From Candidatus Omnitrophota bacterium (GTDB taxonomy: Bacteria; Omnitrophota; Gorgyraeia; 1-14-0-20-64-10), in contig JACOVG010000024.1 of NCBI GenBank assembly GCA_016177405.1, forward strand, positions 71,079 to 135,078: a stretch of DNA of 64,000 nucleotides, written 5' to 3'. Below, in pieces: positions 3,313-55,145 of the stretch. Below the pieces are notes generated by a model. The model was not told the origin of the DNA and did no database searches. It worked only from the letters and a program-made list of their open reading frames with translations. The position numbers and the translations under genes were made by a program. Numbering within the stretch: position 1 is the stretch's first letter; the number at the start of each line of letters is the position of its first letter.

Positions 3313-3538
3313 GAGCACGTTTCAAAACCGTCATCGCGAGCCCCCGCCCCTGGCGGGGGCGTGGCGATCTCGTCTTAAAAGCGAGATTGCTTCGGCCTAA
3401 AGGCCTCGCAATGACGAGTTATCTAAGGAGTCATCCCCGCCCTCGCTTACGCGAGGGTAAACTACAGCGGGGATCCCTGTCATTCCCCCGAAAGGGGGAA
3501 TCAGATCCTCACTTTCGTGAGGATGACTTAAGGGTGCA
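3313..3538. repeat. cluster of 4-5 REP-like palindromic hairpin elements in the sdhA-sdhB intergenic space
   Basis: Consecutive perfect hairpins: gcccccgcc-cct-ggcgggggc; gagattgc...ggcc-taaa-ggcc...gcaatgac; gtcatccccgc[cctcgc-ttac-gcgagg]...gcggggatc; attccccc-gaaa-gggggaat; gatcctcac-tttc-gtgaggatgac. The same modules recur at 12672, 55097 and 4543. Confidence 0.65.
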
Positions 3539-4237
3539 ATGAACGTCACTTTTAAGCTTCTGCGGTTTGACCCGGAGCGGGACGCCAAGCCCCACTGGGA
3601 AAGCTATCAGGTGGAGATGGAGCCGACCGACCGGGTGCTGGACGGCTTGGAGGCGATCAAGGGCCGCCTCGACGGCACGCTGGGTTTCCGGCGCTCCTGC
3701 GCCCATGGGATCTGCGGCTCGGACGCCATGCTGATCAACGGGCGAAACCGCTTGGCCTGCAAGGTGCTGGTGAAGAACCTGGAGCAGCCCATCGCCATCG
3801 AGCCGATGCGCGGCTTCAAGGTGGTGAAGGATTTCATGGTGGATCTCACGCCCTTCTTCGCCAAGTACCGGTCGGTCAAGCCTTTCCTCATCGAGTCCGG
3901 CCCCCCGCCCGAAAAGGAGCGCCTCCAATCCCCGAAGGATCGGGAGCGTTTTGACGACACCACCAAGTGCATCCTCTGCGGGGCCTGCACCACGAGCTGT
4001 CCCTCCTTCTGGTCGAACCCGGACTACGCGGGGCCGGCGGCCATTGTTCAGGCCCACCGCTTCCTCTTTGACAGCCGGGACGCCGGCAAGAAAGAGCGGC
4101 TGGCCGTCCTGAACACCCAGGACGGCGTCTGGCGCTGCCGCACCGTCTTCAACTGCGTTCAGGCCTGCCCCCGCGGCATCAACGTGACCCGCGCCATCGG
4201 CGAGGTCAAGCTCGCCCTCCTTAGAGGAAAAGCCTGA
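3539..4237 (+). CDS. sdhB: succinate dehydrogenase iron-sulfur subunit SdhB
   Basis: CxxGxCGxC 2Fe-2S motif (SCAHGICGSDAM), CILCGACTTSCP and CVQACPRGI cluster motifs. Length 232 aa. Confidence 0.9.
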   Translation: MNVTFKLLRFDPERDAKPHWESYQVEMEPTDRVLDGLEAIKGRLDGTLGFRRSCAHGICGSDAMLINGRNRLACKVLVKNLEQPIAIEPMRGFKVVKDFMVDLTPFFAKYRSVKPFLIESGPPPEKERLQSPKDRERFDDTTKCILCGACTTSCPSFWSNPDYAGPAAIVQAHRFLFDSRDAGKKERLAVLNTQDGVWRCRTVFNCVQACPRGINVTRAIGEVKLALLRGKA

Positions 4238-4246: not shown

Positions 4247-5206
4247 ATGGAGTCGAAGCGCTCGCCGTACCTGAAGCACATTTACGTCTGCGTGAATCGG
4301 CGCGACCCCGGAGAAACTTTCTGCGCCGCCGGCGGCAGCGAGGAGATTCTGGAGAAGCTGAAGGCCTACGTGAAGGCCAACGGCTTGAAGGGCAGGGCGC
4401 GGGTGAGCAAGTCCGGCTGTATGGATCTGTGCGCCCAGGGGCCCAACGTGATGGTTTACCCGGACCACCAATGGTACCACCACGTGACGCTGGCTGACGC
4501 GGACCGGATCATCGCGGAGCACCTTGAGCCATTGGTCCAAAACGAGATTGCTTCCCGCTTCGCTGGCGCTCGCGGTCGCAATGACGAAGGGGTGCCCTCC
4601 TCTCGCGACGGGATAGGGGCCTTCCTGTTTGATCTGGGCAACGTCCTGGTCCGGTTTGACCATCTGAATGCCGCCCGGCAAATCGCCCAGCGCACCCGGG
4701 TGGACCCGGAGGAACTTTTCCGCCTCTTCTTCGATTCTCCCCTGGTGATCGATCACGACACCGGAAAGATCTCCACCCGGGCCTTCTACGAAGAGCTAAG
4801 GAAGAAGTGGAACATCGGGGCCACCTTTGAAGAGTTCCTGTTGGCGTGGAACGGGATCTTCACCGAGGACAAAGGGTCCACGGCCCTGGTGAGGAAGCTG
4901 ATGAAGCGCTACCCCTGCTACCTGATCTCCAACACCAACCCGCCTCACTTTGAGCATTGCCGAGAGAGTTACCCCGTGCTGAAAGAGTTCTCCGGCTGGA
5001 TCCTCTCCTACGAGGTCGGCGTCTTGAAGCCGCATCCGGCGATCTATCAGAAGGCGCTGGAGATGATCGGCCTGCCGCCGGAGCGGATCTTCTACGTGGA
5101 TGACCGGGCCGACCTGATCGAGGCGGCCGAGACCATGGGCTTCATGACCCACCGCTTCACCGACGCCAAGACCCTCCGCGAAGAGTTATCCACAAAAGGG
5201 GTCTGA
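4247..5206 (+). CDS. fusion ORF: N-terminal thioredoxin-like [2Fe-2S] ferredoxin domain plus C-terminal HAD-superfamily hydrolase domain
   Basis: N-terminal ~100 aa (YVCVNRR...CAAGGSEEI...GCMDLCAQGPNVMVYP) is a Trx-like 2Fe-2S ferredoxin. The C-terminal part (FLFDLGNVLV..., ISNTN, YVDD) carries the HAD motifs I-III. The junction (aa ~98-115) is encoded by a REP-like palindromic element. Confidence 0.6.
   Translation: MESKRSPYLKHIYVCVNRRDPGETFCAAGGSEEILEKLKAYVKANGLKGRARVSKSGCMDLCAQGPNVMVYPDHQWYHHVTLADADRIIAEHLEPLVQNEIASRFAGARGRNDEGVPSSRDGIGAFLFDLGNVLVRFDHLNAARQIAQRTRVDPEELFRLFFDSPLVIDHDTGKISTRAFYEELRKKWNIGATFEEFLLAWNGIFTEDKGSTALVRKLMKRYPCYLISNTNPPHFEHCRESYPVLKEFSGWILSYEVGVLKPHPAIYQKALEMIGLPPERIFYVDDRADLIEAAETMGFMTHRFTDAKTLREELSTKGV
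4543..4586. repeat. REP-like palindromic element (gagattgc...gcaatgacg type) embedded in-frame in the coding sequence
   Basis: cgagattgcttc...tcgcaatgacg shares both arms with the intergenic copy at 3382..3416. It encodes the linker NEIASRFAGARGRND between the ferredoxin and HAD domains. Confidence 0.55.
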
Positions 5207-6701: not shown

Positions 6702-9005
6702 ATGAAAAGTCTCCTTTGGGGTCTAACCCTCATGGCCTTCTCAAGCTCTTCCGTGAGTTCTGGAACTTCCGAATTCTTAAGCAGCGTTCTTCGGCCCATG
6801 GTGGAGAAGAAGATCGAGACTGGTCTCGAAGAGGCCTTGGGCGGCGAGCCAGACAACCCCTCCTCCGAATGGAGGGGAACGCGGCGCCGATTTCTTAACG
6901 AGGCAGCCCGACGCTTTGCAGGCGTCACAGCGGCGGGCTTAATGACTCTGAAAGGAGGGGTCCAGGCCGAATCGGTTCCCCTCCCCTCTGCGCCACCGCC
7001 CTCTCCCAAACCGGCCCCGCCGGCCGAAGCCAGCGCCGCCGAGTGGCAAGAGCGGTACGCCGGGCTTTTCGACGTCTGGGGCGACCTGTACGACGCGGCC
7101 GACCAGTTCCTGGACGCCGTCCAGTTGAGGCGCTACGGCCTTGTCCTCTTGGACAAGACCAAGGACCTGGAGGATTGGGAGGCCCTCCTGGCCGGCGCGG
7201 TCGCCAGCTACAAGGAAAAGATCCGGTGGACCGTCTTGGCCAGGCCAGCGTTTTCGCCGGAGTTTCGAGCCCGCTTCGTCCGGCTGATCCGACGGCTTGA
7301 AGAGGAGGCGCGCCCGCAGGTGGTGGATGAGCGGTTTTTGCCTGGCAAGATGCGGGAGATCCTCCGGTCGGAAAAGATGCGGCAGTGGGCCTGGTCCCAG
7401 GGGCAGGCGGCCGGGAAGCCGTGGGATGCCTATTGGGCGAGCGAGCCCGGCTTTTGCGCCCTCTTCCTGGGTTCGAGCGGCGAGGTCCTGGAAACCAAAG
7501 AGGATCTGCTGGCTTTCCTGGACGACGTCTTAAAGGAAAACGACAAGGCCATTCTTTCCGCCGCTCTTTCAGACTGGGAGATCCACTTCAGGGCGGTTCA
7601 GATGAGGTCGGAGAAGGAGGGGCGGCCCACCCCTGGCTATGTCAGGGCTCTTCTGGAGGATGAGCCGAGGCGCCGGCGGTTTGTCCTTGCCCTCTTCGAG
7701 ATCTTTTACGACCTGGGTCATAACTCAAGCGAGGTCTTCCAGCTCAATACCCTGCGGACGGCCCGACACCTTCGGACGCGGCTGGCAAGCCCCAGCTATC
7801 TTCCCGCTGAAGAAAAGATTACCCTCTTTACGACCCCGCCGGAGGCCCTGCAGGTTGTTTTGGGAAGACTGCCCGTTCTCTGCGAGATGGTGAGCAGGGG
7901 GATCGTCTCAGGCCAGGAGGCCTCCAGGCGGCTTGGGCCCCTCTTGCGGCATCCCGTGGCGGCGGCCCAGGAGCTGGAGGAGCCCCTTTCAGCTCTTTTG
8001 GATTGGGCCGCGAGCCGAAGAGAGGCAACGGCCGATGTCAGGAAGGCCCTGGAGACGCTTGCCGCGCGCCTGAAACCGAGGGGCTTCCATGTGGAGCCCC
8101 TTTTCGTCACCGATCCCGGCTTCCTCTACCCCAGGGTCCCCAGCGCGGTCTGGTCGGGGCTGATCACCAGGATCGTTTATGAGGGGATGCTGGACAATCG
8201 GAAAATCCTGGTGGTGCACAACCTCTATGGCTATAACCCTTATGTCCTGGTGGGAGGTTATTCCTTCTCCGCCCGGAGGCAAGCGGTGATTTTTCTCCAT
8301 CGCTACATTACCGTCAACCGCGCCTTTCAAGAAGGACTGGGGGGTGAGCGGATCCCTTACCGGATCTCGACGCGCGTGGGGGACGCCTCCACCACAAGAA
8401 GGTTTCGCGATTGGGAGACGAGCATCCTGCGGCAGGCGGTGGGAGAAAACCCGGAGCTTCTGGATGAGAAGAAACGCCTTTGGGCCGTCGCGCTGGATGC
8501 CCTTCTTCACGAATGGGTTCATGCCTGGGGAGCAGGCGGCGGCGAATACCTTCCCTACGCGGTCGTGATGGGTTTTGGGCGGGCGCCTCTTTTGTATCTG
8601 GCCGAGATCGCGCCAGGGCATCTGCTGCCGGACAGGGGAGAGCGAGAAAGAAGCGCCAAGGAAGGTGCCGGCGGAATCTGGAAGGCTCTGGGAGCCGATC
8701 CTGCCCAGCCGCCCCTGGAGCAGATCCTGGCCACCCGCCCCACAGAGGCCCAGCTCCGAAGGCGTTTTTCGGAGCAGCTTGGCATTGATGATCCGGTTCT
8801 CATGCAGCGCCTGGTTGCACTGCGGGAAGAGTGGGAGGCCCTTTATCGCGCGCTGCTGAAGCAGGAGTTTAAGGTGCCCCCTCCGGAGGCAGCCGCGCCC
8901 TCGTCGGAGACAGTCCCGGCTGCCCAGGGCGGGCTGGAGGAGGCCTCCGAAAAGGGGTTGGAAGAAAGGATCCGAAGGGCGCCCGAGCTGGAACAAGGGG
9001 TTTGA
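6702..9005 (+). CDS. secreted hypothetical protein with a Tat-type signal (RRRFLNEAARRF...VQA) and an HExxH motif (LHEWVHAWG); carries GLEE motifs near both termini
   Basis: Long ORF preceded by an AT-rich promoter region. Twin-arginine motif at aa 61-66 followed by an h-region and an AxA site. The true start may be the internal ATG at 6798. Single HEWVH near aa 590. A Pro-rich linker follows the signal. Confidence 0.55.
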   Translation: MKSLLWGLTLMAFSSSSVSSGTSEFLSSVLRPMVEKKIETGLEEALGGEPDNPSSEWRGTRRRFLNEAARRFAGVTAAGLMTLKGGVQAESVPLPSAPPPSPKPAPPAEASAAEWQERYAGLFDVWGDLYDAADQFLDAVQLRRYGLVLLDKTKDLEDWEALLAGAVASYKEKIRWTVLARPAFSPEFRARFVRLIRRLEEEARPQVVDERFLPGKMREILRSEKMRQWAWSQGQAAGKPWDAYWASEPGFCALFLGSSGEVLETKEDLLAFLDDVLKENDKAILSAALSDWEIHFRAVQMRSEKEGRPTPGYVRALLEDEPRRRRFVLALFEIFYDLGHNSSEVFQLNTLRTARHLRTRLASPSYLPAEEKITLFTTPPEALQVVLGRLPVLCEMVSRGIVSGQEASRRLGPLLRHPVAAAQELEEPLSALLDWAASRREATADVRKALETLAARLKPRGFHVEPLFVTDPGFLYPRVPSAVWSGLITRIVYEGMLDNRKILVVHNLYGYNPYVLVGGYSFSARRQAVIFLHRYITVNRAFQEGLGGERIPYRISTRVGDASTTRRFRDWETSILRQAVGENPELLDEKKRLWAVALDALLHEWVHAWGAGGGEYLPYAVVMGFGRAPLLYLAEIAPGHLLPDRGERERSAKEGAGGIWKALGADPAQPPLEQILATRPTEAQLRRRFSEQLGIDDPVLMQRLVALREEWEALYRALLKQEFKVPPPEAAAPSSETVPAAQGGLEEASEKGLEERIRRAPELEQGV

Positions 9006-11889: not shown

Positions 11890-12694
11890 TTCCTCCGCCT
11901 GCCTGGCGGCGGCGGTTGAGGCGGCCCAGGCCGGCGGCAAGATCCTGCTGGCCCGGCTGGGCAAGCTTTCGGCCTCGGAGGTGAATCGCAAGGGGGCGAC
12001 CGACTGGGTGACGGCGGCGGATCACGCCTCCGAAGCGGTGATCCTGCGGATTTTGAAGAAGGCCTTTCCGGATCACTCCGTCAAGGCCGAGGAGTCCTCG
12101 CCGGGGGAATCGGCTGCCGCCTTCCAGTGGCTGGTGGACCCGCTGGATGGAACCTCCAACTACATCCACAGCTTCCCGGCCTTCTGCGTGTCGATTGCCC
12201 TCGCGAAAGAGGGAAAGCTGGAAGCGGGCGTTGTCTTTGACCCTCTGCGGCGGGAGCTCTTCACCGCGAGGCGCGGCCGCGGGGCTTACCTCAACGGCCG
12301 GCGAATCCATGTTTCCAAGAGGCGCAGGCTCTCCGAAACCCTGCTGGCGACCGGCTTCCCTGTGAAGGGGAAGGAAAGGATCGATCTTTACCTGGCCAGC
12401 TTCCGGCGGATCTTTCTTAAAACTGGGGTCATCCGCCGGGCCGGATCGGCGGCGCTGGATTTGGCTTACACCGCCTGCGGCCGAGCCGACGGCTTCTGGG
12501 AGATGTGCCTGGCGCCCTGGGACATGGCGGCAGGCGCCTTGCTGGTCACCGAGGCCGGCGGCAGGGTGAGCGATTTCTTCGGGGGCGGCCGATACCTCGA
12601 AAGCGGCAATATCACCGCCGGCAACGCGGCCATTCACCCGCAGCTGGTGAAAATTCTCGCCCCTCTGTTTAGATCCTCGCTTGCGCGAGGATGA
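11876..12694 (+). CDS. suhB: inositol monophosphatase family protein (SuhB-like)
   Basis: WLVDPLDGTSNY and AAGALLVTEAGG motifs. The true start is an internal ATG (MRESDSS...) of the listed ORF 11690..12694. The last codons and the stop are encoded by a REP hairpin. Confidence 0.8.
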   Translation: MRESDSSACLAAAVEAAQAGGKILLARLGKLSASEVNRKGATDWVTAADHASEAVILRILKKAFPDHSVKAEESSPGESAAAFQWLVDPLDGTSNYIHSFPAFCVSIALAKEGKLEAGVVFDPLRRELFTARRGRGAYLNGRRIHVSKRRRLSETLLATGFPVKGKERIDLYLASFRRIFLKTGVIRRAGSAALDLAYTACGRADGFWEMCLAPWDMAAGALLVTEAGGRVSDFFGGGRYLESGNITAGNAAIHPQLVKILAPLFRSSLARG

Positions 12695-12695
12695 C
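12672..12695. repeat. REP-like hairpin (gatcctcgc-ttgc-gcgaggatgac) overlapping the suhB stop codon; possible terminator
   Basis: Perfect 8-bp stem. Same GTCATCC/GGATGAC-flanked family as the 3427 and 55097 copies. The TGA of suhB lies inside the 3' arm. Confidence 0.55.
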
Positions 12696-12711
12696 AGGGT
12701 GTTTCTTCCGG

Positions 12712-13329
12712 CTAAAGCTTCCCGACCTGATACGAAGAGCGAATGCCGAACCAAACGGCCAAGACCCCAACGCCGATGGCCATCCCCAGAGCCGGAAAGC
12801 TCATCGCTCCATAATGGGACGGGGCGAGCATCGCGAAGAGCATCGGGCCCGACAAGAAGGTGTTGACCCGCGAGGTCAAGGCGGCCAGCTTGCGAAGCTT
12901 GGGGGCTTCCTCCGGCGAGGCCTTTCCGGTCAAGAGCTTCTTTTGGATGGGCCAGATGATGAACCAGACGTTGAACCACATGACTGTCCCCAGGAGCATC
13001 CCAAAGAGGATCCACATGGCCCGCTGGGTCATCCGGCTGGTTTCCATGAGGAGGCTGGTCGCCCCCAGGCCCACTCCCGGGGTGTAGAAGTAGGTCAGCA
13101 CAAAGAGGGCCAACCCCGCGAGGAAGGTGACCATGGCTCCCCACCGGAACCACCAGAGGGCGCGGGGCATGAGCTGGGGATTGACCGCCTTCTTGGCGGC
13201 GTCGTCCAGCGAGCCCTGCAGGGGGACGTTGACGAGGTTGAAGAAATAGAGGTGGCCGATCCAGGTAATGCCGGCAATCACGTGCAGCCACCGGACGATC
13301 AGATGGACGTTGCTGTAAAGATCGGGCAT
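12712..13329 (-). CDS. integral membrane protein, CopD-like / DUF-type, 5-6 TM
   Basis: 205 aa hydrophobic protein with HVIAGITWIGHLYFF, resembling the CopD-family HxxxGxxWxG helix. It is the only convincing minus-strand gene in this region. Confidence 0.45.
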   Translation of the reverse strand: MPDLYSNVHLIVRWLHVIAGITWIGHLYFFNLVNVPLQGSLDDAAKKAVNPQLMPRALWWFRWGAMVTFLAGLALFVLTYFYTPGVGLGATSLLMETSRMTQRAMWILFGMLLGTVMWFNVWFIIWPIQKKLLTGKASPEEAPKLRKLAALTSRVNTFLSGPMLFAMLAPSHYGAMSFPALGMAIGVGVLAVWFGIRSSYQVGKL

Positions 13330-13343
13330 CGCTAACCTCCTTA

Positions 13344-18704: not shown

Positions 18705-21700
18705 ATGAAAAAACTACGATCGCTCATCTCGCTTGCCTTGGCGCTCCAGCTTGCCCTGCCAAACCCTGCCGGAGTTTACCCAGAGCTTAGTCGAAGGGCC
18801 CTGCGCGTTAACCAGCTAAGAGAAGACCCCGCCGGAAAGACCCTTGCCGGTTTGGAAGAAGCCCTTCAGGGGAAGATGTTTTCAACCCCGGTGCCTGGCA
18901 CCAAGATGGCTGAAGGGGCCCGGAGGCAGATGAGCCAGTTCTTCCTGGCGCTGGGAACCTTCCTGCTCCTGTGCGCCGGAGGCAGGGGCGAAGAAGCGGT
19001 TTCGCCCCCGCTTATATCTTCAGCCGGCCCGGTATCCCCTCCATCCGATTCCAGCCAGAGAGCGCGCGGCCTGCTTTCCATCGGTCGAGGGACCTACGAA
19101 GGCGTTCTGAAGTCGCCAGCCAGAAGCTGGGCGGTTGGGGAGTTTGCCGAGAGTTATGAAGAATACGAGAGGATGCTGGCCAAGTTTCCCGACCTCCCGC
19201 CCATGGTCGAAGAGGCCTTGGATTACCTGAAGGAGAACCACCCTGGGATTTATGAGCGGTACGTCTTGCCCGGGATCTCTCGAATCATCCTGGTGGAAGG
19301 GGACATCCTAACCGCTCAAGCGCTGGGAGAGGGGAATGTTCTTCTCGCGGATGCCACCGTGCGGCACCTTCACGCCATGCCCCGCCAGGATCGTCCTCGC
19401 GTTCTCGCGGGAATCTTGGCTCATGAGGCGGTCCACAATACCCATCGCCAAAGAGGGCGTTTCCCCTCCACGAAGGACGAAGAGCCGGCGGACAGCGCTC
19501 TCGCCATGGAAGAGCTCACCGCCTACCTGATTCAGGCAGCCATTCCATTTGCCGAAACCCAACGTCCTGGAGCGATTCAGCCCATGGGGTATCTCATTTT
19601 TCAGGAGGATCTCTTTGGCCTGCGGCATGTTTCCGACGGACATTGGCTTGGGCTTTTCTCCGGGTTGGTGATCGGCCAAGGCGGTCTTTTCTTTCCGGAC
19701 GAGCTGGGCAGGCCCCCGAAGGTCCTCTGGCCGCTGGCCTCTCGGAGGATTCAAGCGCTTGCAAAGATCGAGCGGATGGAGCGGCAGAGGTTTGGAGAGG
19801 AGACGGCCGTTGAATTCCTGATATTCCACAAGGGAGAGGAAGATCCGAGGGCGGTCTATGTGGAGTATCGAATCCGGGAGGTGATCTATCGGCGGAAGGT
19901 TGACGTCAGAAGAGGCGGGAGGACATCGGTTGGGAAACCTGCAGTCGTTTCAAGGGACGCGTCGGTCTTTCATCGGGAGGTTCAAGAGCCATATGAGACA
20001 AAAGGGGGACCTGCCGCGGACCCCAAGGTCCTTAGGGATCTCAAGGCCTTCTTATTGGAGGTTGCCCAGCAGTTGTCAAATGAGCCAAGGACGCCGGCCG
20101 ATCAACGCCTCCTTGAGGTCATCCGTGAGATTCAAAAAAGATTAGAACCCCCCCCGGCGCCGCCCAAGCCCACGGTGCCTGGCAGAAAAGGGCTAGAAAC
20201 CCCCACCGGGCTGGGCAGGGCGGAGACGCAGCCGCCGAACCAGCCGCGGACGTTCTGGGCGGCCCGCGGCAACGGTAAAGTTCCCTTCACCCCAACGGCC
20301 CTCACTCGTAAATCAACTCCTCCGGTGTCTGGCCCCACCGCTGGGCTGGAGGAGGGGACCTCGCTTAAGAGGCGGATGGAGATTGCCAAAGGTCATGGCG
20401 CTCTCTACATCTCATTGATCGATATCTTCTTAAGACCAGGAGATTTGGAGGAGAAAAACCAGAGGGTCGAGCAGCAGATTCGAGACCTCCCCCCCGGATT
20501 TCCGAAAAGCATGAAGGAAGGTTACCTTGAAGGATATCGGAGATTTCTAGGAGGACTTGCAGCTAACCATGCTCTTCTTGAGGATTTTAGACAAGAAGGA
20601 GTCCGCGGACTTCTTTCGCGTCTGGCCTTGAGTTTAGAGGAAGATCCAGCAAGACCTTCGATGAGGATAAAGGCTGTTCGAGGAGTGTTAGAACGGAGTT
20701 TGAGCAGGGAAATGAATGATGCGGATTATCTTCTCACCACGTTCATCGTCTCATCTGGCCTTGAGAAGAAAAAGGATATGAATGAGATCGAACTTGATCT
20801 GCAAAAAGTCTTAGCTCACCCGGTTCGTCAAGGGTCCACACGCCTTTTAGAACCGACGCGGGGTGTTCTCATCGTTGAGGTCCAGGAAGAACTCATTCGT
20901 TTGATGCAAAATCGTGGGCTGCTGCTTTGGGCAGGGGCAGCGTTTTACGTTCCAAGTGAAAGCAATCATTTACCCAATTTTATTATAGTGCCAGACAATT
21001 CTCAGCTTTGGAAAAAGGCCCTGGCAAACGAGAGATACCTTACGGATGACCCTGATGTTCGCCATGAATTTCATCACCTCGTTTGGGATCTCCTCATGCG
21101 CAGCGGGTTCTTAAGAGAAACAAAGGAATCATCGGTGGGCAGGAGTAAAGCCTTTGATGGTTTTAGAGACGAGGTTAGCGCCTATATCGTTGCTGCCAAT
21201 AAACATTTCGCGGGAGTAGAACCAAAGTTACTGAATTATCTGGAGGGGACAGGTGACCTATCCGCAGACGCTCGGAAGGCGACCCGCGATGCGAGGGATT
21301 TTTCCGCCGCCGCTATGGAGATAGCCGAACAGCTAGGCATTCCCCGTTCCGCCTTTCTCTATGCTTCCATGACAGCGAGAAATTTCTCCGAGTTAAAAAG
21401 ACTTTTTGCGGAGTTAACTCCCTTACGCAAGTTGGAAGACCTTGAGGCCTGCGGCTTGCTCTATGCCGCATGGGAGAAATTGAGATATGAAGCGGATGTA
21501 AGCAAATCCATCGGAGATCTGCTTCGGGAGAAAGGGTTACGCGTCGACCCGGCCCTCGCACAAGCGTTTGCCATCCATCACCTCCGATCAGACGAAAAGT
21601 CCTTCCAGCGGTTGGGCGAGCTGGATGAAGAGTTGGGAAGAATTGAGAAGGTCTTTGCGGCATTTGGGTCGAGGCTTCCATCTCGGGAGGGCGTCTTGGA

Positions 21701-24700
21701 AGCCGTCTTTGAAACCCGGCTCCCTCTGCCTCTTGAAACGCGCCAAACCATCCGGACGTTCTCGTTGGGCGAACGGACTGGAATCCCGCTGGGTTTGAAA
21801 CCAGAGGATTTCTTAACGTCCCTCGTCTCCTTCCTTCTCATCGATGATCCCGCCACAGGGAACAGGTTCAGAATATACCAAGCCATCGTTCGCTCTTCAC
21901 CTGTTATGCTGGCGGCCTTCCGAAAGGTTCAGGACGAGATTATTCGTAAGGGGAGTCAGGCTTACCGGATCGAGATGAAGGGGAGGGGGGCATTGGAGGC
22001 CGAGATCAAAACGATATCGGACTGGATAAAACGCTTAGGTGAACCGCCGCCAGCGTTGGACACCCCAGCGCCAGCCACCCCCGCCGGGCTGGAGAAGGTG
22101 GTGAGGGGAAATTTGGCCATGCTAAGGCAGGCGTACCCTCTTATGGAGAGTGCCGTTGTTCCTGAACCATTTGTGAGGGGAGAAAAGAACAGACCCCATC
22201 TCTATTTCGCCCTGAATGGGGCGGGGAAGATCCTCGAAATTAGACAAGATTGGGTGAGTACGGAAGATCGTGCGGCAAAATGGGTTCTGGGGCTTGCCTT
22301 ACGCTGGCCCGCCAAGGGGCCATTTCAACTCAGTACGGCTAAAAGAGATGTTGAAATTATAACGGGTCCAAGCGGCGCTGGCTACTCGAAATTGCCGAAG
22401 CTTTTTCTAGATTCAATAAAGTTGTTTAATCGGGTCCCCTATCCGTTCGCCGCCCTGACACGTTTTTCTCCCGATGAAGCCCAAAAGGAACTGGGCCAGT
22501 TCAAAGGACTGGGGAAGCTGCAGGCGGCGGAAACGTGGGTGGGACATGGCGGCACCAATAGGCGTGAAAAGATCTCGTTGGTGGATCCCCCAGGAAACCT
22601 CTGGTTTATCCATCTTAAGGACGTGATGGTTGAAAAGACGACGCGGGAAGAAAGATTTCTAGAGGGTTCTCTCTTCGTCAGGCAAAGGCAAATCTCTTTG
22701 GGTGAACTTCAGAAACTCATTGCTTCCTCTTCGCTTATCCAGAGGTTTCCCCGATCCCCCGCCGGGCTGGAGGAGGGATGGCTAAAGCGTGCTTTGAAGC
22801 GGTTTGGCTTTGTTTCAGGAAAACCGGTTCTTGAAGACAAGAAAGCGCAAGAAGGCCCACGGGCTGTTGCTGCCAGAGACCTCATTGCTAGGGGTGAGAA
22901 GCCAGAAGGCATCACCGAGGTGGTTGGTTACTTGGAGAGTGTTTTAGAAGAGGAACGGCGGAACGCCCAAATGGCTCTTACCCAGATTGCTGACGATAAG
23001 CAAAATAGCGATCCCGCCAAGGTGAACTTCCTTCGAGCCATGAACAACGCCCAGGTAGTCCAGAAGAGCGTTCCCAATCTCTTTAGGCCGGGCGTTTACC
23101 GTGCAGCTTACGATACCCTTAGAGAACTTGTCTCCTATGGAGAGTTCAATGAGGCATTCATTTCAGTGATTCCCATTTTGGCGGAGAAGCTCTCGTCTTC
23201 AGATGGGGACGTTCGCCTGCCCAGCCTAGCAGTCCTGAATTACCTTGCTGGGTTCGAGAAGTTCGCTGAGGCCATTAAGAAAGCCCGGGTACTGGAAAAG
23301 TGCCTCGCCAACCCCAACCTCTTACGCGATACGGCCAATCTCTACAGGAGACATGATGTTGAGCCGAGTATCTATCTTCTTTTCCTGAATGTGCCTGCCT
23401 ACCTTGGAACATTCAACTCCCGAGTTATCCCTCTACTGGCTGCCGGTTATTCGGATTCGGATCCATTAATCCGCAACGAGGCCAGCAGGGTTCTCCTTCG
23501 GCTTGCCCACTACCTGGAATTGTGGACAGCATACGTCACTCGAGTTATCCCCGCCATCCTGGGCAACCTTATGAATCCAGATGAATCCATCCGCGATTCG
23601 GCCAGGAGCGATCTCCTCGCTTTGGATAGCACACGCCCTTATTATCCGTTCCCCGAGGATGCCGACCTCGACGGACTTCATCAAGCAATCGTCTCCCGCA
23701 TTCCGCCTCCAGTCTTAACGGCCTACCGGCAGGCATGGTTTGATGGCAAGACGCTCAAGGCTTTGGATAATCCATTTAGGTCTGATGCGGTGAATGCGCT
23801 TAGCCAAGATATTTTTAAGAGAGACGCTGGATCGAAGGAGGAACGCCTGCTGCTTCAACTTCTTGGAGAGTTCTCTCCGGAGAAGGCCGCCGAGATCAAG
23901 AGTGTCTTGGAAAAAAGATCACGGGCACCTGGAACCGGCTTGCCAGGTGCCGCCGGGCTGGAGGAGGTGGCCGAAGAACTCAAGGGGCAGACGCTAAAGC
24001 TGCTCAACGACGTGTTTGGCGGCTCTGAAATCAAGCAGGTGACAAGGGAAGCGCTCGGGCGCCTCCAGGAAAGATTCGACAGGGCCCCAAGCGAGGAGAA
24101 GCGCGGCATCCTCGGAAGATTCTGGGAGATCTACCTGCCGTCCCTCCGCAAGCTTGCTCGACAGCGCATCCAAGAGACAGCCGCCACCGCCAGGCCCCTG
24201 CCCCCAGGCCATGTGGAGCCCTCCGTGGTCATCGTTGGACCGGCCGTGAACCTGAACCTCAACATTGGCTGGATGCCGGACCCGGAGGATTCCCAGCGGC
24301 TCGTCGTAGATCCAGGCGCGACCAGTTTGAAGGCCAACGGATCCCCAACGAACGTCATGGAGACCTTGCTGTTTCTGGGGACTCCCTTCCGGTCAATCGG
24401 CATGCGCGGAGCCGATGGGGCGCCGGTTCACCAAATATTCTTTGAGCTCCTCGGGGCCGTAGGGATTGACCCCCAGGAATGGCCCCGTGTCTCCGGGGAT
24501 GTTGATTTCGTCCCCACGATGTCCGCTGGCACGCTGGGGCTTGATTATCGCTTCATCCCGCCTCTCCCTCCCTGGAAGAATGCCGAGTTGTCGAATTACA
24601 CCGGCGCGGTGTCTCGGGTCACTGAAGAGCTCGCCACAGGGGGAAGACCGCACGGGGCCTTGGCGGTGACCAGCCGCGTTCCGGCCAACGCCCCCTCAGA

Positions 24701-27700
24701 CTTTCTCTCGCAGCTCTTTCGGATCGGGAAGAAGGGAGGCCTGTTCGTGGTCTATGATCCCAAGACGAACACCCTGGAGAATCCGGAGATCCGCAGCGCC
24801 ATCGTGGCTGAAGGACCCCACCTCATCACGCCGAACCTGGAAGAGTTCTCTGTGCTGGTCGGCCTTCCTCTCGAAGAGCTTCAGACTCCGGAGCAGATCA
24901 TCGTTGCAGCCCATCGGCTGATCGGACGGCCGAAAACCGATATCCCAATGATCCTAATTTCGCTCGGAGACAGGGGGGCTCTGCTGATCGACAAGGAGCG
25001 TGCAGCCTACGCCAACGTGCCGCCGGTTTCCGTCGTCGGCCCGGGAGGGGCAGGGGACGCCGGTCTGGCCGGTTTGTTGCGCCAATACGCCCAGACGGAG
25101 GCGTCCCAGAGGCCATTCTCCACCCTAAGGGACTCGGAGTTCCTGTCCCTGCTGCGCGCCTACGTCGCCGCTGGGGCCGCGGCGGTCCTGATGCCTGGCG
25201 ATGAGTCTCCCTTCCTGGAGGGTGTCGTTCAAATGGAGCAGCAGGTCCGAACGACGTTCTTCCGGGGAGAGCTTCCTTCAGAACATCTGGCCGGGCTTTT
25301 TACCCCAGTGGAACGCCCTACTGCCCAAAGCCCCTATCAGAACCGGGTGTGGGTACCGCGGCTGGGGCGTTTTTTCTTCGCGGATGAGGAGGTCATCTCT
25401 CCGGACAATGCCGGTTCCGACCTCTACCTGAATTTCATCCTCTCCAACCCGAGTCTCTTTAGGGATAAGACGGTTCTGGAGCCCTTCACCGGTTCCGGTG
25501 TGCTGGCGTACGCCTTGGCGTCGGTTGGGGCCACGGTGGTGGCGACGGATGTCTCTGAATCGGCGATTCGCCTCGCTGAAAGGAACCGCCAGGATTGGCC
25601 GCCGGAAATCCGGGGCCGGGTGACGTTCGGGATCAGCGATGTCTATGGCAATCTGTGGAGAATCACCGCTCTACGTGAATTCGATGTGATGATTGGCAAC
25701 AATCCCACCCAGAGGCAGGATCCTCTGCCTGGGGATGGGGCCTCCTACATGACAAGTGCCGGCGAGCATTTTGAAGTCATCCGGGAGGCCATCACCGGGC
25801 TCGCTGTCCTGCTTAAGCCTGGCGGCAGCGCCTATTTGCAGACCCGTGTTGTTCAGGAGCAGGAGGAACCTCTGCGCCGGCTGACAGCCGAACACCTCAA
25901 GGAGAAACTCCTTCCAGAGGGGTGGGATCTTGAGCCGACCAGCTACGAGGGGATGGGCAGGACCGAGTTGATTCCGCTTGTGATTAACCGCATCTTCCGC
26001 ACCCCCGCCGGGTTGGAAGAGGAGGAGGCGGGTGGACGGGTGAGGGGATGGGCTTTGTCGCTGATTGGCCGCCTGTTTCAATTCCCGAGTCGGCTTGTGA
26101 CAGAGCGGAAACTCATGAAGATCCTGAAAAATCCCAACGATAACCCGTACGAACGACGTTTGGATGCCTTGGAAGTCGTTTCTATCACAGGGGACAAGAG
26201 GTTGCGCGCCAAGTGGGATTCTTCTCCTGGCTGGGATTTGAGTTATCGGGAAGCGGTAATAAAGCACTTGGCCAGGATGGGAAGCAAGAAGCTCGTGCCC
26301 CTGCTTAGGGAAATCCTTCAGGATCCAAAGACAGAAACTGCGGCTGGCGTGGTGGCAGCAAGGGAGATGATCGATTTGGGGGCCACGGACGTGGCGGTTG
26401 CGTACCTTGGTCAGGCGGTGGGGAAAGAAGAAATCCCCCCGCAGAGTCATGAGGATGTTATCAAGGCGTTATGGAAAGAAGAAATCTCGCCGCTGGATTA
26501 TGAGAATGTTATCAGGGCGCTGGGGAAAGCTGGGGGAACCGCGGCGGTGGGGTACCTTGGCAAGGTGGCGGAGAAACTGTGGCTGGGCGATGGCTCGCCC
26601 AGCTACTGGGCGCTTGAGGCACTGGGAAGGATCGGCAGCCAAGAGGCCTTGGACCGCTTAAGGGGATTTGCATCGCACCACAAGGTACAGCTCCTTCGAT
26701 TCATGGCGCAAACTGTGCTGACGGAAATTGAAAATCCGAAGAGGGCGATTCCCTCTCTGAAACAACTGATGTTGGATTCAAGGGTTCCCAATGAATTTAA
26801 GGCCACCGTTCTGGAAAGGATTGCGGAAGGCGGCTCCCCCGACGGGATTGCCTTCGTGGGAGAAATGGCCAGGGATTTGAAGATCACCTCTTTGCGGGAT
26901 AAGGCGGTTGAAGGCCTGGTCAAGAATGGCAGCCCCCAGGCGGTTGGAGAGCTCGCGGAGGTATTGAGGGTTGAGGATGGGATCTCCTCTTTCTGGGCCA
27001 GCACCCTGGAGGGCCTTGCGACGATAAAAACGCCCGAAGCGGTAGCTCTTTTAGGCAGACTGGCAACGGATAAGGGAATGCTGGTTCTTTCCAGGAGTAA
27101 AGTGATTGACCTCTTGCTCAAGGTGGAGAGCCGGCACGCCATACCGCATTTGGCTAAGTTGGCGCAGGAGGAGGGAGAGAACGTCCTCCTGCATGGTGAC
27201 AAGCAAGCTGCCGCTCTAAGACTCATAGAGATCGGCGGCGATGAGGCGCTTCCATACCTTAAGCAAATTGCCAGGAATGGCTGGTCTTGGACTTTGGCCA
27301 TACAGGGGCTTGGAGAAATGGGCGGCGTGGAGGGGCTTGATTTCCTGGCCAGGTTAGCCGTCGATAAAGAGGTTGACCCCAAGAGAAAGGAACGGGCCCT
27401 TTTTCAACTTGCCGATGTGAGCTCTCCCGAAGCGCTCGATTGGTTGAGAAGGGTAGCCATGGATCCTGATCAAGATCCCACCCTGCAAGCTGCGGCGATG
27501 TCGGCCTTGATGCGCGTAATTCCGAGGTCTCTTCCTTATCTGCTCGGTGGGTTGCTGGTTGCGGATGACGAAGGGATTCCATTGGCCATGTTACGGCGGT
27601 TCTCAAAGAAAGATATCCTGGCGGCGGTCAGCCGTGGTTCTCCCGGGCCAGAGAAACTTCTTTGGCTGCCCCCTGTCGGCAGCAAGGTGCCTGTGGCGCT

Positions 27701-28964
27701 GAGGAAAGAAGCGGGGGGGATGAAAAGCGACAATCTCGGCGTCTTCGGAACACACCTCACCGCTGAGGGACAGTTGAGGAGGATGAAGGACATTGTAAAC
27801 GTACTCGGGGCACAAAACATACACCAGATGACGGTACAGGGCCGCCTGACAGACCCCTTTAAATATGTGGCTGCCCTCCTCATTCTTGCAACCCCCACGC
27901 AGTTCATGAACCTGGAGGCAATAGGCACAGGCACCGATAGCTGGAAAACGTGGCTTCAGATTGGGCCTCTTGTCCACGACGGGCTTCAAGCCAACAAGCC
28001 GATCAACCCTCTGTGGGGTAACGAGGGCCGCACCGATTTTCTCCTTCTCATGACGCCAGAGGAGGTCCAATTGGCAGAGGGCTACCCGATCAAGCTTAAG
28101 GCCTATCAGCGATTGGCGTTGGCGCTTCACGCGGCCCAGGGGACGGTTCCAAGCCAAATGCCCAAACAGCTTCGGGAGAGGCTGGCCGATGTCTGGCGAG
28201 AATTTGTGCAAGAAGCGGATAAGCTGCTTGTGGAAAGTTACGCGAAGCCGGCGGTGGAGCTTCCATGGTTTTCAGAAGGCGCGGACTCCAAGGGACATCC
28301 TTTGAGCGCCTACGGTAAGCGGCAAGAGGCGGACTGGGGTCCCATCCAGCAGGCCTTCCTTCGCGCCAGAGAGAAGATTCTGGATGGGGCCCAGACGGAT
28401 GAAGAGAAAATGGCGGTACTCTACGGGGTTGTCGGGCCATCTTTGGGACTCCTGGCGAGATTCTCGAAGAGGGTAGACCAGGTCCTGGGGGTCTCTATGC
28501 CCCAGCCGGCCGTTCCACCGTCCCCCGCAGGGTTGGAGGAGGCGCGGGAGGCGGCGGCGAGGGAGCGGTTGGATGGGATGAGGTCGGCGGCGCTGACCTT
28601 GGACTGGGTGGTGATTGGAAAGAGAGTTGCGGGACAGTTTCCCGGGCTTGAGCAGTTGGCTGGGCTGGAGGAACGGATTTTAATCGATGGGGATGATCCA
28701 GCAGAGACGGCCTTTAAACTGATTCAGCGGGGCGCCGCTTGGGGCGATCGGGTGACCTTCTTTGGCGGCTTGGAAGAAGGGGAGAAGCTTACCTTTGTGG
28801 CCAGAGATGCCGGGCTTACGTTTCAGATCGTTGGTCTTAAGGAGCAGGGTTTTTCCATTCAGCTTCGGCAGATCTTGGCGGGTCTTGGGATTCCGGACGC
28901 GGCGATTGCGGCTGGTCTCGAGGAGATGGCCGCCGACCTGACCTTCCTAGGCCAAGCGGCTTGA
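18705..28964 (+). CDS. giant (3419 aa) secreted multidomain protein. Contains a signal peptide, a HEAVH motif, a second HEFHH motif, a PfkB/ribokinase-like kinase domain, a class-I SAM-methyltransferase-like domain and PBS-lyase HEAT repeats. Punctuated by nine (P/A)AGLEE motifs
   Basis: Single uninterrupted 10,260-nt ORF with no competing frames. N-terminal MKKLRSLISLALALQLALP signal. HEAVH at nt 19422-19436. PfkB motifs LITPNLEEF...VVGPGGAGDAGLAGLL (~24650-25100). MTase motif I LEPFTGSGVLAYA, ATDVSE and IGNNPTQ (~25460-25760). Repeated ALGxxGxxxAVxxL HEAT units (26100-27500). AGLEE motifs at nt 18846, 20337, 22080, 22758, 23949, 26004, 28524, 28663 and 28906. Confidence 0.75.
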   Translation: MKKLRSLISLALALQLALPNPAGVYPELSRRALRVNQLREDPAGKTLAGLEEALQGKMFSTPVPGTKMAEGARRQMSQFFLALGTFLLLCAGGRGEEAVSPPLISSAGPVSPPSDSSQRARGLLSIGRGTYEGVLKSPARSWAVGEFAESYEEYERMLAKFPDLPPMVEEALDYLKENHPGIYERYVLPGISRIILVEGDILTAQALGEGNVLLADATVRHLHAMPRQDRPRVLAGILAHEAVHNTHRQRGRFPSTKDEEPADSALAMEELTAYLIQAAIPFAETQRPGAIQPMGYLIFQEDLFGLRHVSDGHWLGLFSGLVIGQGGLFFPDELGRPPKVLWPLASRRIQALAKIERMERQRFGEETAVEFLIFHKGEEDPRAVYVEYRIREVIYRRKVDVRRGGRTSVGKPAVVSRDASVFHREVQEPYETKGGPAADPKVLRDLKAFLLEVAQQLSNEPRTPADQRLLEVIREIQKRLEPPPAPPKPTVPGRKGLETPTGLGRAETQPPNQPRTFWAARGNGKVPFTPTALTRKSTPPVSGPTAGLEEGTSLKRRMEIAKGHGALYISLIDIFLRPGDLEEKNQRVEQQIRDLPPGFPKSMKEGYLEGYRRFLGGLAANHALLEDFRQEGVRGLLSRLALSLEEDPARPSMRIKAVRGVLERSLSREMNDADYLLTTFIVSSGLEKKKDMNEIELDLQKVLAHPVRQGSTRLLEPTRGVLIVEVQEELIRLMQNRGLLLWAGAAFYVPSESNHLPNFIIVPDNSQLWKKALANERYLTDDPDVRHEFHHLVWDLLMRSGFLRETKESSVGRSKAFDGFRDEVSAYIVAANKHFAGVEPKLLNYLEGTGDLSADARKATRDARDFSAAAMEIAEQLGIPRSAFLYASMTARNFSELKRLFAELTPLRKLEDLEACGLLYAAWEKLRYEADVSKSIGDLLREKGLRVDPALAQAFAIHHLRSDEKSFQRLGELDEELGRIEKVFAAFGSRLPSREGVLEAVFETRLPLPLETRQTIRTFSLGERTGIPLGLKPEDFLTSLVSFLLIDDPATGNRFRIYQAIVRSSPVMLAAFRKVQDEIIRKGSQAYRIEMKGRGALEAEIKTISDWIKRLGEPPPALDTPAPATPAGLEKVVRGNLAMLRQAYPLMESAVVPEPFVRGEKNRPHLYFALNGAGKILEIRQDWVSTEDRAAKWVLGLALRWPAKGPFQLSTAKRDVEIITGPSGAGYSKLPKLFLDSIKLFNRVPYPFAALTRFSPDEAQKELGQFKGLGKLQAAETWVGHGGTNRREKISLVDPPGNLWFIHLKDVMVEKTTREERFLEGSLFVRQRQISLGELQKLIASSSLIQRFPRSPAGLEEGWLKRALKRFGFVSGKPVLEDKKAQEGPRAVAARDLIARGEKPEGITEVVGYLESVLEEERRNAQMALTQIADDKQNSDPAKVNFLRAMNNAQVVQKSVPNLFRPGVYRAAYDTLRELVSYGEFNEAFISVIPILAEKLSSSDGDVRLPSLAVLNYLAGFEKFAEAIKKARVLEKCLANPNLLRDTANLYRRHDVEPSIYLLFLNVPAYLGTFNSRVIPLLAAGYSDSDPLIRNEASRVLLRLAHYLELWTAYVTRVIPAILGNLMNPDESIRDSARSDLLALDSTRPYYPFPEDADLDGLHQAIVSRIPPPVLTAYRQAWFDGKTLKALDNPFRSDAVNALSQDIFKRDAGSKEERLLLQLLGEFSPEKAAEIKSVLEKRSRAPGTGLPGAAGLEEVAEELKGQTLKLLNDVFGGSEIKQVTREALGRLQERFDRAPSEEKRGILGRFWEIYLPSLRKLARQRIQETAATARPLPPGHVEPSVVIVGPAVNLNLNIGWMPDPEDSQRLVVDPGATSLKANGSPTNVMETLLFLGTPFRSIGMRGADGAPVHQIFFELLGAVGIDPQEWPRVSGDVDFVPTMSAGTLGLDYRFIPPLPPWKNAELSNYTGAVSRVTEELATGGRPHGALAVTSRVPANAPSDFLSQLFRIGKKGGLFVVYDPKTNTLENPEIRSAIVAEGPHLITPNLEEFSVLVGLPLEELQTPEQIIVAAHRLIGRPKTDIPMILISLGDRGALLIDKERAAYANVPPVSVVGPGGAGDAGLAGLLRQYAQTEASQRPFSTLRDSEFLSLLRAYVAAGAAAVLMPGDESPFLEGVVQMEQQVRTTFFRGELPSEHLAGLFTPVERPTAQSPYQNRVWVPRLGRFFFADEEVISPDNAGSDLYLNFILSNPSLFRDKTVLEPFTGSGVLAYALASVGATVVATDVSESAIRLAERNRQDWPPEIRGRVTFGISDVYGNLWRITALREFDVMIGNNPTQRQDPLPGDGASYMTSAGEHFEVIREAITGLAVLLKPGGSAYLQTRVVQEQEEPLRRLTAEHLKEKLLPEGWDLEPTSYEGMGRTELIPLVINRIFRTPAGLEEEEAGGRVRGWALSLIGRLFQFPSRLVTERKLMKILKNPNDNPYERRLDALEVVSITGDKRLRAKWDSSPGWDLSYREAVIKHLARMGSKKLVPLLREILQDPKTETAAGVVAAREMIDLGATDVAVAYLGQAVGKEEIPPQSHEDVIKALWKEEISPLDYENVIRALGKAGGTAAVGYLGKVAEKLWLGDGSPSYWALEALGRIGSQEALDRLRGFASHHKVQLLRFMAQTVLTEIENPKRAIPSLKQLMLDSRVPNEFKATVLERIAEGGSPDGIAFVGEMARDLKITSLRDKAVEGLVKNGSPQAVGELAEVLRVEDGISSFWASTLEGLATIKTPEAVALLGRLATDKGMLVLSRSKVIDLLLKVESRHAIPHLAKLAQEEGENVLLHGDKQAAALRLIEIGGDEALPYLKQIARNGWSWTLAIQGLGEMGGVEGLDFLARLAVDKEVDPKRKERALFQLADVSSPEALDWLRRVAMDPDQDPTLQAAAMSALMRVIPRSLPYLLGGLLVADDEGIPLAMLRRFSKKDILAAVSRGSPGPEKLLWLPPVGSKVPVALRKEAGGMKSDNLGVFGTHLTAEGQLRRMKDIVNVLGAQNIHQMTVQGRLTDPFKYVAALLILATPTQFMNLEAIGTGTDSWKTWLQIGPLVHDGLQANKPINPLWGNEGRTDFLLLMTPEEVQLAEGYPIKLKAYQRLALALHAAQGTVPSQMPKQLRERLADVWREFVQEADKLLVESYAKPAVELPWFSEGADSKGHPLSAYGKRQEADWGPIQQAFLRAREKILDGAQTDEEKMAVLYGVVGPSLGLLARFSKRVDQVLGVSMPQPAVPPSPAGLEEAREAAARERLDGMRSAALTLDWVVIGKRVAGQFPGLEQLAGLEERILIDGDDPAETAFKLIQRGAAWGDRVTFFGGLEEGEKLTFVARDAGLTFQIVGLKEQGFSIQLRQILAGLGIPDAAIAAGLEEMAADLTFLGQAA

Positions 28965-48804: not shown

Positions 48805-49364
48805 AGAGATTGCTTCGTCCGCCAGCAATTGCTGGCGGACTCGCAATGACATTGGCACTGACGACTGCTTTTGCCGCGGACGACCTCCACTCACTGCAGG
48901 AACTCTTCCTGCGGGGCGAGTACGCCGCGGTGGTCGAGAAAACAAAAGGGCTTCTGCCGCGCGCCCGGTACGATCGGGACGGATTGCTCTACCTTCAGGG
49001 GCTCTCGGCCCTCAAGCTGAAGGAGACGGAGCTGGCCCGAAGCTCTCTGGAGGAGCTGATGACCCGGTACCCCCAGAGCCCTTTTTCTTCGCAGGCCAAG
49101 CTGGCCGTAAGCCAGGTTCAAACCCCCTCGGACGAGCCGGTTCTTTTCTCCGTGCAGGTGGGGGCCTTCCAGACCCGCGCCAACGCCGTGAAATTAGCGG
49201 AGGAGCTTAAGCGCCGTGGATACGACGCGGATGTGTCCGAGGCCCAGATGCACGGCAAGCGCTTCTTCCGGGTGCGGGTCGGGCAGTATGCCGACCGGCC
49301 GCAGGCCGAATCCAAGGCGCGAGACCTCGCTCAAGAAGGCTTTCCCACCAAGATTGTTCCCTAG
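48774..49364 (+). CDS. SPOR-domain protein with TPR-like N-terminal region and a signal peptide
   Basis: C-terminal FSVQVGAFQTRANAVKLAEELKRRGYDA...FRVRVGQY is a SPOR peptidoglycan-binding fold. Confidence 0.6.
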   Translation: MLKNSRGPILKRLLRPPAIAGGLAMTLALTTAFAADDLHSLQELFLRGEYAAVVEKTKGLLPRARYDRDGLLYLQGLSALKLKETELARSSLEELMTRYPQSPFSSQAKLAVSQVQTPSDEPVLFSVQVGAFQTRANAVKLAEELKRRGYDADVSEAQMHGKRFFRVRVGQYADRPQAESKARDLAQEGFPTKIVP

Positions 49365-55096: not shown

Positions 55097-55145
55097 GTCA
55101 TCCTCACGAAAGTGAGGATCTGATCCCCGCTTTCGCGGGGATGAC
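55097..55145. repeat. pair of REP-like hairpins (gtcatcctcac-gaaa-gtgaggatc; tgatccccgc-tttc-gcggggatgac) between dnaK and dnaJ
   Basis: Exact reverse complements of the hairpins at 3502-3529 and 3427-3474. 8-bp perfect stems with GAAA/TTTC loops. Confidence 0.65.

Follow-up and report, generated by a model that had tools for sequence, protein, structure and literature searches.

What fills the spacer between sdhA and sdhB in a member of the Omnitrophota, and how did it come to be there? We addressed this in a 64,000-nt stretch (the window) of a Candidatus Omnitrophota metagenome-assembled genome (MAG; 62% GC), in which the sdhA-sdhB spacer is occupied by an array of short hairpins. An earlier note on the same DNA had taken them for a genome-specific family of REP-like elements affecting messenger RNA (mRNA) stability or expression within operons. 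The comparisons reported here point instead to the oriented hairpin repeats known as NTS, dRS3 or Ssn-related motifs (SRM), on which small GIY-YIG nucleases (Ssn) act in single-stranded DNA (ssDNA), and the window hairpins are probably copies of that family.

A single oriented hairpin plan

Ten copies of one module plan, 5'-GTC-AT[stem]-loop-[stem']AT-C-3', occur in the window (Table 1). The sdhA-sdhB spacer has five of them and the dnaK-dnaJ spacer two; the remaining three lie at the suhB stop codon, past a miaB-like gene, and in a protein linker. The hairpins described in the earlier note were found where it had placed them, the sdhA-sdhB spacer resolving into five modules, and so was their recurrence between dnaK and dnaJ (55097-55145) and at the 3' end of suhB (12672-12695). 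Its stems (ATCCTCAC, ATCCCCGC, and ATCCTCGC) and loops (GAAA, TTTC, and TTGC) are likewise correct, the loops becoming GAAA or GCAA when read from GTCAT. To these we add two copies that had not been listed, of the GAGATTGC...GCAATGAC type (4546-4585 and 48808-48850, both on the minus strand).

The GTC at the 5' side and the C at the 3' side of the AT...AT palindrome are present in 10/10 window copies. Six copies have perfect 8-bp stems, and in the other four the 5 bp of an outer stem are perfectly paired; the stem cores are CCTCAC, CCCCGC, CCTCGC, and TCCCCC. Read in GTC orientation, four simple copies have a GAAA loop and a fifth has GCAA; in the five long-loop copies (A, B, C, and those in the HAD linker and past the miaB-like gene), an inserted hairpin replaces the G-M-A-V loop that is typical of SRM. 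Folding energies support hairpin formation by the modules as DNA, with z scores from -4 to -8.8; the sdhA-sdhB spacer reaches -64.1 kcal/mol (z = -8.8), and the copy in the HAD linker, whose inner hairpin has decayed, gives z = -0.4.

GC-rich palindromes might be expected by chance in a genome of 62% GC, and elements near gene ends might be intrinsic terminators. Shuffle controls refute the first idea, since six perfect 8-bp modules were found against 0.017 expected (300 shuffles), together with five matches to the general pattern (0.40 expected) and four to the long-type pattern (0.01 expected). As for the second, there were no terminator-like sites on either strand between 3200 and 3700 and no promoters in the scanned spacer. 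With flanks that are conserved and stems that covary, as detailed below, neither explanation retains more than a negligible probability.

To see how general the plan is, we used loci fetched from GTDB and from metagenomes (labeled L with a number), amounting to ca. 1.7 Mb for the counts of modules and associated genes. Among perfect 8-bp hairpins starting with AT, search seeds excluded, the GTC...C flank occurred in exactly one orientation in 80/97 hairpins from GTDB and 105/136 from metagenomes (185/233 together), where chance would give it in 1/256 per orientation. Loops in the GTC orientation were GAAA, GAAG, GCAG, GCAA, and GAAC. For covariation, 60 distinct sequences were picked by flanks and loop, not by pairing: 94.2% of their stem cells were paired, against 78.9% in shuffles and 28 to 48% in slid controls, and 88 cells carried a double change against 27.6 in shuffles, a value reached by 0/500 of them. 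Compensatory changes affect all six variable stem pairs; the hairpin is under selection.

Relation to the NTS/SRM repeats

Chenal et al. (Nat Commun 2025) extended the Neisseria repeat dRS3 (ATTCCC-N8-GGGAAT) to an oriented 28-nt sequence, the NTS (CGTCATTCCCGCGMAVGCGGGAATCYRG), and generalized it to the SRM (PMC11893778). In many phyla these repeats flank ssnA, a small single-domain GIY-YIG gene (CDD cd10448), in a unit of the form NTS-ssnA-NTS (PMC11893778). SsnA binds to the hairpin and makes its cut on the upstream side, on ssDNA only and on the forward strand only, and does not act on RNA; binding and cutting restricted to one strand of ssDNA were reported for four Ssn homologues (PMC11893778). 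Binding depends most on the C directly past the palindrome and cutting on the three bases that precede the palindrome, and the published SRM loop is G-M-A-V (PMC11893778). The invariant C and GTC of the window copies therefore fall exactly on the positions that are critical for SsnA.

The resemblance extends to the whole element: a (C)GTC head, a palindrome beginning AT(T/C)CC..., the G-M-A-V loop and the C directly after it, in an oriented, multicopy arrangement clustered around genes, with modules identical to those of the window flanking small GIY-YIG genes elsewhere. Module D fits dRS3 exactly, the only window copy to do so, and also matches the core of the SRM string. Povalibacter, Devosia, and Sphingomonas, named with Rickettsia as SRM-rich genera (PMC11893778), are among our own GTDB matches. 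By these tests of sequence and architecture, the window copies appear to be SRM. They differ from the described repeats in their host, in their stems (TCCCGC in the NTS), in their 3' flank, in the several long loops with a nested hairpin, and in one copy that lies in frame within a gene, intragenic NTS being only 2% in N. meningitidis (PMC11893778). What the window would thus contribute is a new host phylum, new stem variants, and long-loop and in-frame copies of an element already described.

GIY-YIG genes beside identical modules

GIY-YIG open reading frames (ORFs) of ca. 95 aa stand directly between modules in L177 (twice), L170, L136, L225, L165, L232, L089, L095, and L125, and a similar one is present in L092. 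In L177, L170, L136, L225, L165, and L232 the flanking modules are identical to those of the window (CCTCAC and CCTCGC). The module-flanked ORFs match Pfam PF01541 with E = 3e-16. Where two modules lie 150 to 2500 nt apart, a GIY-YIG ORF sits between them in 6/15 tail-to-tail pairs, 2/41 tandem pairs, and 0/48 head-to-head pairs, and no other recurrent cargo was found between modules in the fetched loci, leaving the GIY-YIG ORF as the sole gene that is repeatedly bracketed. A masked stretch of N lies between modules in one GTDB locus (L117:5710-6505). In a profile search with 10 Ssn-like ORFs, none of the best 120 of at least 8000 matches carried an Omnitrophota label.

Doublets of unlike modules

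Neighboring modules up to 150 nt apart are arranged tail-to-tail in 143 cases, in tandem in 21, and head-to-head in 6. Tail-to-tail partners have unlike stems in 135/144 pairs, and in 29/29 when the gap is 2 nt or less. All three doublets of the window (A/B, D/E, and dnaK-dnaJ) obey both rules. Unlike stems may mean either that the left and right ends are distinct or that long perfect palindromes, being unstable in bacteria, are avoided. The two halves of a doublet may be the left and right end of a nonautonomous mobile element that carries no gene and is mobilized in trans by a GIY-YIG Ssn, a proposal that we make tentatively and consider rather doubtful; we know of no transposition chemistry for this type of enzyme.

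The REP/BIME/REPIN elements of E. coli and Pseudomonas are likewise short extragenic palindromes that form inverted doublets and cluster in operon spacers; for both kinds of repeat, an origin from the ends of gene-bearing units and recognition as single-stranded hairpins are presumed. Could the modules be REP or REPIN elements mobilized by RAYT, a Y1 HUH transposase of the IS200/IS605 type? They share with these the short GC-rich palindromes, the inverted doublets, and the BIME-like clusters. The head of the module, however, is GTCAT, not the GTAG of REP or the GT[A/G]G that RAYT-associated REPs are said to carry (work attributed to Nunvar, 2010, and Bertels & Rainey, 2011). The only gene recurrently bracketed by modules in the ca. 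1.7 Mb was the GIY-YIG ORF, in place of a Y1 HUH transposase, although no systematic search for Y1 transposases was made. REP families are species-specific, whereas the modules span phyla. Finally, doublet partners differ in stem and each folds on its own; they do not pair with each other into one long REPIN hairpin. The analogy is drawn in the Ssn paper itself (PMC11893778), and we consider a RAYT origin very improbable. With IS200/IS605 elements proper, the modules have in common an enzyme that reads subterminal hairpins on ssDNA and two ends with distinct hairpins; however, the IS200/IS605 hairpins are read on the same strand, while the inverted modules are read on opposite strands.

The copies in the window and their surroundings

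Table 1. Positions, strands, and make-up of the hairpin modules in the 64,000-nt window
Feature	Coordinates	Strand	Sequence or structure	Remarks
sdhA-sdhB spacer	3313..3538 (226 nt)		order [A> <B] [C>] [D> <E]	
Module A, long type	3330..3369	+	GTCATCGCGAG-[inner 9-bp hairpin GCCCCCGCC/GGCGGGGGC]-GTGGCGATC, then TCG	
Module B, long type	3385..3415	-	GTCATTGCGAG-GCCTTTAGGC-CGAAGCAATC	tail-to-tail with A
Module C	3430..3475	+	8-bp outer stem ATCCCCGC/GCGGGGAT; 26-nt loop made of a CCCTCGC/GCGAGGG hairpin plus TAAACTACA	
Module D, simple 24-nt type	3479..3502	+	GTCATTCCCCCGAAAGGGGGAATC; 8-bp stem, 4-nt loop	
Module E, simple 24-nt type	3504..3527	-	GTCATCCTCACGAAAGTGAGGATC; 8-bp stem, 4-nt loop	
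Long-type copy	4546..4585	-	GTCATTGCGA...GAAGCAATC	within HAD-domain gene 4247-5206, in frame in its interdomain linker; encodes NEIASRFAGARGRNDEG
Simple module	12672..12695	-	GTCATCCTCGCGCAAGCGAGGATC	overlaps the stop codon of an Inositol_P (suhB-like) ORF
Long-type copy	48808..48850	-	GTCATTGCGAG-[10-bp inner hairpin]-CGAAGCAATC	4 nt past the MiaB-like stop
Simple module	55097..55120	+	GTCATCCTCACGAAAGTGAGGATC	left half of the dnaK-dnaJ doublet
Simple module	55122..55145	-	GTCATCCCCGCGAAAGCGGGGATC	right half of the dnaK-dnaJ doublet; tail-to-tail, gap of 1 nt

In the sdhA-sdhB spacer, sdhA ends at 3312 and the sdhB ATG is at 3539; a purine-rich AAGGG (3530-3534) upstream of that ATG is free of hairpins. 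Modules A, B, and C have a second, inner hairpin within the loop, set in the same outer frame as D and E, which are tail-to-tail with a gap of 1 nt. The subtype of module C was also found in L148, L139, and the protein linker of L246, and module E equals the copy at 55097-55120 at 24/24 positions despite the distance between the loci. The other half of the dnaK-dnaJ doublet is the commonest module variant across phyla, and the GCGAGG resembling a ribosome-binding site (RBS) of dnaJ (55148-55152) is left outside the doublet. The copy at 48808-48850 is preceded by a MiaB-like radical-SAM gene (47413-48804) and followed by an IPPT (miaA-like) gene. No direct repeat was visible by eye at the flanks of the dnaK-dnaJ and suhB copies; the tail-to-tail doublets themselves form inverted termini.

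The suhB copy lies at a convergent junction between the suhB-like ORF, which runs to 12694, and a minus-strand gene at 12712-13329; the final seven codons of the suhB-like ORF and its TGA stop (RSSLARG*) come from the module. A plus-strand ORF of 214 aa (12691-13335) was rejected as spurious: its ATG lies within the GGATGAC of the module and it has no Pfam match. The true gene there is the one on the minus strand (Urate_ox_N, E = 7e-28), which is missing from the syntenic region of L247, a relative described below. Elsewhere in the window, an ORF of 3419 aa (18705-28964) contains a 26-nt motif six times and a 51-nt tandem duplication at 26413-26514.

Filled and empty sites in relatives

Four relatives (L244 to L247) were found by tracing SdhB homologues to their contigs. 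In L244 (91% SdhB identity) the sdhA-sdhB spacer has 34 nt and no module, and in L247 (82%) sdhA overlaps sdhB by 1 nt. The latter contig is syntenic with the window over 20.7 kb, in which only two weak 5-bp pattern matches, judged to be chance, were found. These empty junctions in close relatives indicate that the array was inserted, and the SdhA C-terminus, ...QPQERKY in the window, L244, and L247 alike, indicates that the insertions are strictly intergenic. The insertion is recent in this lineage. Empty and filled sites are too diverged for alignment. The earlier note had named absence from the same site in relatives as an observation that would speak against its reading, and such absence is what the 91% and 82% relatives display. 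Logan contigs of the same organism break within this spacer (L242 ends and L003, L007, and L008 start there), as expected of a multicopy repeat.

The other two relatives have the junction filled with something else. In L246 (84% SdhB identity), the spacer contains a 107-aa GIY-YIG ORF (4815-5138, overlapping the sdhB start; PF01541, E = 3e-19), flanked at L246:4753-5140 by a different hairpin family, with CCGTTCGTCCTGAGCACAGTCGAAGGACGAACGG upstream and GGTCACCCT...AGGGTGACC at the 3' end. This is a second pairing of nuclease and hairpin at sdhA-sdhB. The contig of L245 (85%) begins inside a spacer filled with hairpins of this second family, of the GTTCGTGGTTCGACAGGCTCACCACGAAC / GTTCGTCCTGAGC...GGATGAAC type (1-275). 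The GTTCGT-type hairpins of L245 and L246 were not found in the window.

Coding sequences have been entered as well. In the window, L244, and L245, the reading frame of the HAD-domain protein linker runs through the long-type module, and in L246 it runs through a CCTCAC module plus a subtype-C module (CHPHEGEDP...); in L247 the linker is short and plain, with no module. Modules have entered this interdomain linker in frame on at least two occasions. Similarly, the module-derived SuhB C-terminus of the window, RSSLARG*, corresponds to ...FRGRI* in L247.

These sites bear directly on the regulatory role proposed for the hairpins, in which they would act in RNA, as REP/BIME elements do, by blocking 3' exonucleases or uncoupling translation, set the sdhA:sdhB and dnaK:dnaJ ratios, and be retained for that reason. 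The spacer is extremely stable as RNA (-122 kcal/mol, z = -9.9), the arrays lie between codirectional genes with the RBS-like sequences of sdhB and dnaJ left free, and insertion must have altered translational coupling if the 1-nt overlap of L247 is taken as the reference. A transcript containing such a module accumulates as the small RNA FtrB in Francisella: the Northern probe for FtrB (Rfam RF02748) is the reverse complement of ...GTCATTCCCGCGTAGGCGGGAATC... (PMC3091763), from which we deduce that FtrB contains an NTS/SRM-like module, a connection that we did not see stated in the Ssn paper. The window spacer is not itself a member of FtrB, the resemblance being confined to the shared module (weak matches at 3411-3549, 17 bits against a gathering score of 66). 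An Rfam scan of the whole window gave nothing at the gathering score, and below it the spacer matched only CRISPR-DR57 and FtrB.

A role in RNA accounts poorly for the asymmetric GTC...C flanks being kept in both orientations to transcription (four plus and six minus), for copies at the meeting point of two convergent genes and in frame inside coding sequence, for the lack of the sdh array in the 91% and 82% relatives, or for the same 24-mers in unrelated contexts across phyla. There are no T-runs between 3200 and 3700, no Rfam family reaches its gathering score, and RNA is not bound by SsnA (PMC11893778). We therefore consider it unlikely that regulation of mRNA explains the elements. A side effect on mRNA is plausible, given 226 nt of stable hairpins in place of the 1-nt sdhA/sdhB overlap of L247.

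Distribution across phyla and viruses

We scanned GTDB, with one genome per species, for the exact 24-mer GTCATCCYCRCGMAAGYGRGGATC, for which ca. 0.1 chance matches were calculated, and found it in at least 119 species-representative stretches from many phyla. The hosts listed include Alpha-, Beta-, Gamma-, and Deltaproteobacteria, Patescibacteria, Omnitrophota, Hydrogenedentota, Gemmatimonadota, Planctomycetota, Melainabacteria, and an actinobacterium. The CCTCAC 24-mer was present in 111 JGI metagenome contigs of 30 to 65% GC, which rules out that stem as a mark of lineage. The module also occurs in at least 120 IMG/VR stretches (L248 to L367), mostly with Neisseria-like stems (ATTCCCGC and ATTCCCAC). 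The family is thus not specific to this genome, contrary to the earlier note; what stands of that description is a dispersed set of small palindromes that cluster in intergenic spacers much as REP/BIME elements do. Their stems differ by compensatory changes.

Several of the viral copies are terminal in their contigs, and in L309 (7.6 kb) both ends bear one (12-35 and 7483-7506). This fits with dRS3 being a known prophage attachment site. Three viral loci carry an Ssn-like GIY-YIG ORF.

In-frame insertion has a parallel in the Rickettsia palindromic elements (RPE), which Ogata et al. are said to have described in 2000 as repeats of ca. 100 to 150 bp that insert in frame in protein genes. As in the HAD linker, small palindromic repeats would be tolerated there as an extra peptide; we liken the two by description only.

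Weighing the assignment

Several observations weigh against assigning the window hairpins to the NTS/SRM family. The published full SRM search string, HGTCWYN(0-2)YYVSBRHN(0-5)WNVSBRGN(0-2)RNCYNB, an operational tool with a background of ca. 1 match per 64 kb, has 0 matches in the window, and the best window match to the strict NTS (at most one mismatch allowed) has 5 mismatches. The failure of the string is due to the 3' flank, to compensatory A:T stem pairs, and to the long loops. The 3' flank is TGA, AGA, TAA, TCG, TCT, or CCT, not YRG; D, the suhB copy, and the second dnaK-dnaJ copy miss the full string by one position there, the CCTCAC and long-loop copies miss it by two to four, and without the last three flank positions 3/10 window copies match. 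A search for GIY-YIG ORFs that covered the 64-kb window and ca. 11 kb of flanking Logan contigs (ca. 6 kb on the left side, 5 kb on the right) detected none, so that no ssn gene is located in ca. 75 kb in total. The GIY-YIG ORFs beside identical modules in other genomes are assigned at the level of Pfam GIY-YIG only; NCBIfam is without a specific model for these proteins, and PDB has only two UPF0213 structural-genomics entries. To our knowledge, there is no demonstrated mobility for the repeats and no known role of Ssn outside Neisseria.

Some of these points would also suit fossil insertions, i.e., SRM-type sequences acquired in the past that have no active cognate nuclease now and are inert, if still hairpin-forming. 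In favor of fossils are the lack of an ssn gene in ca. 75 kb, the departure of the 3' flank from the published consensus, the in-frame HAD copy with its decayed inner hairpin (z = -0.4), and the 19% of SRM-rich genomes that are without an SsnA homologue (PMC11893778). Moreover, the HAD copy, being common to L244 and L245, is old. However, the six perfect 8-bp stems and the two distant copies identical at 24/24 positions suggest that copies spread recently or continue to be maintained, the sdh array, missing from the relative at 91% SdhB identity, must be young, and the verdict would be drawn from only part of the MAG. We regard the fossil explanation as quite unlikely.

On balance, we put the probability that the window hairpins are copies of the NTS/dRS3/SRM family of oriented hairpin repeats, acting in the way outlined next, at roughly three in four.

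Proposed mechanism and implications

From the published biochemistry of Ssn, we infer how such an enzyme would act on the window copies in this organism. When the DNA becomes single-stranded, the strand that reads GTC...C would fold into a hairpin. A small single-domain GIY-YIG nuclease would then bind the hairpin together with the 3' C and cut a few nucleotides 5' of the GTC, leaving duplex DNA, RNA, and the complementary strand untouched. In this Omnitrophota lineage, modules have been inserted where they can be tolerated, namely in spacers within operons, at the 3' ends of genes, and in the linker of a protein. Some stand alone, and others form tail-to-tail doublets whose stems differ. The doublets would be gene-less derivatives of a "module-ssn-module" unit, spreading as selfish, nonautonomous elements and persisting only where they are harmless, with the RBS-like sequences of sdhB and dnaJ spared. 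If the mRNAs of sdh and dnaK are affected at all, this would be incidental. The series of filled and empty sites, the repeated invasion of both the sdhA-sdhB junction and the HAD linker, and the rule of tail-to-tail, unlike stems provide circumstantial evidence that the repeats are mobile.

In practice, modules of this kind break short-read assemblies and yield spurious ORFs and altered C-termini. The Ssn/SRM system was recognized only in 2025, and the locus bears on how its repeats multiply, offering in an uncultured phylum a natural series in which the same sdhA-sdhB junction is empty in two relatives, holds a GIY-YIG gene with hairpins in a third, and bears arrays of hairpins in the window and L245. 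Each module variant could indicate a new specificity of an ssDNA nuclease. If the doublets are indeed the ends of elements mobilized by Ssn, these repeats would be a class of bacterial mobile DNA that relies on ssDNA hairpins and on a GIY-YIG enzyme instead of an HUH transposase, and whose elements cross phyla, reinvade the same permissive sites (the sdhA-sdhB junction and the HAD linker), and colonize protein linkers in frame.

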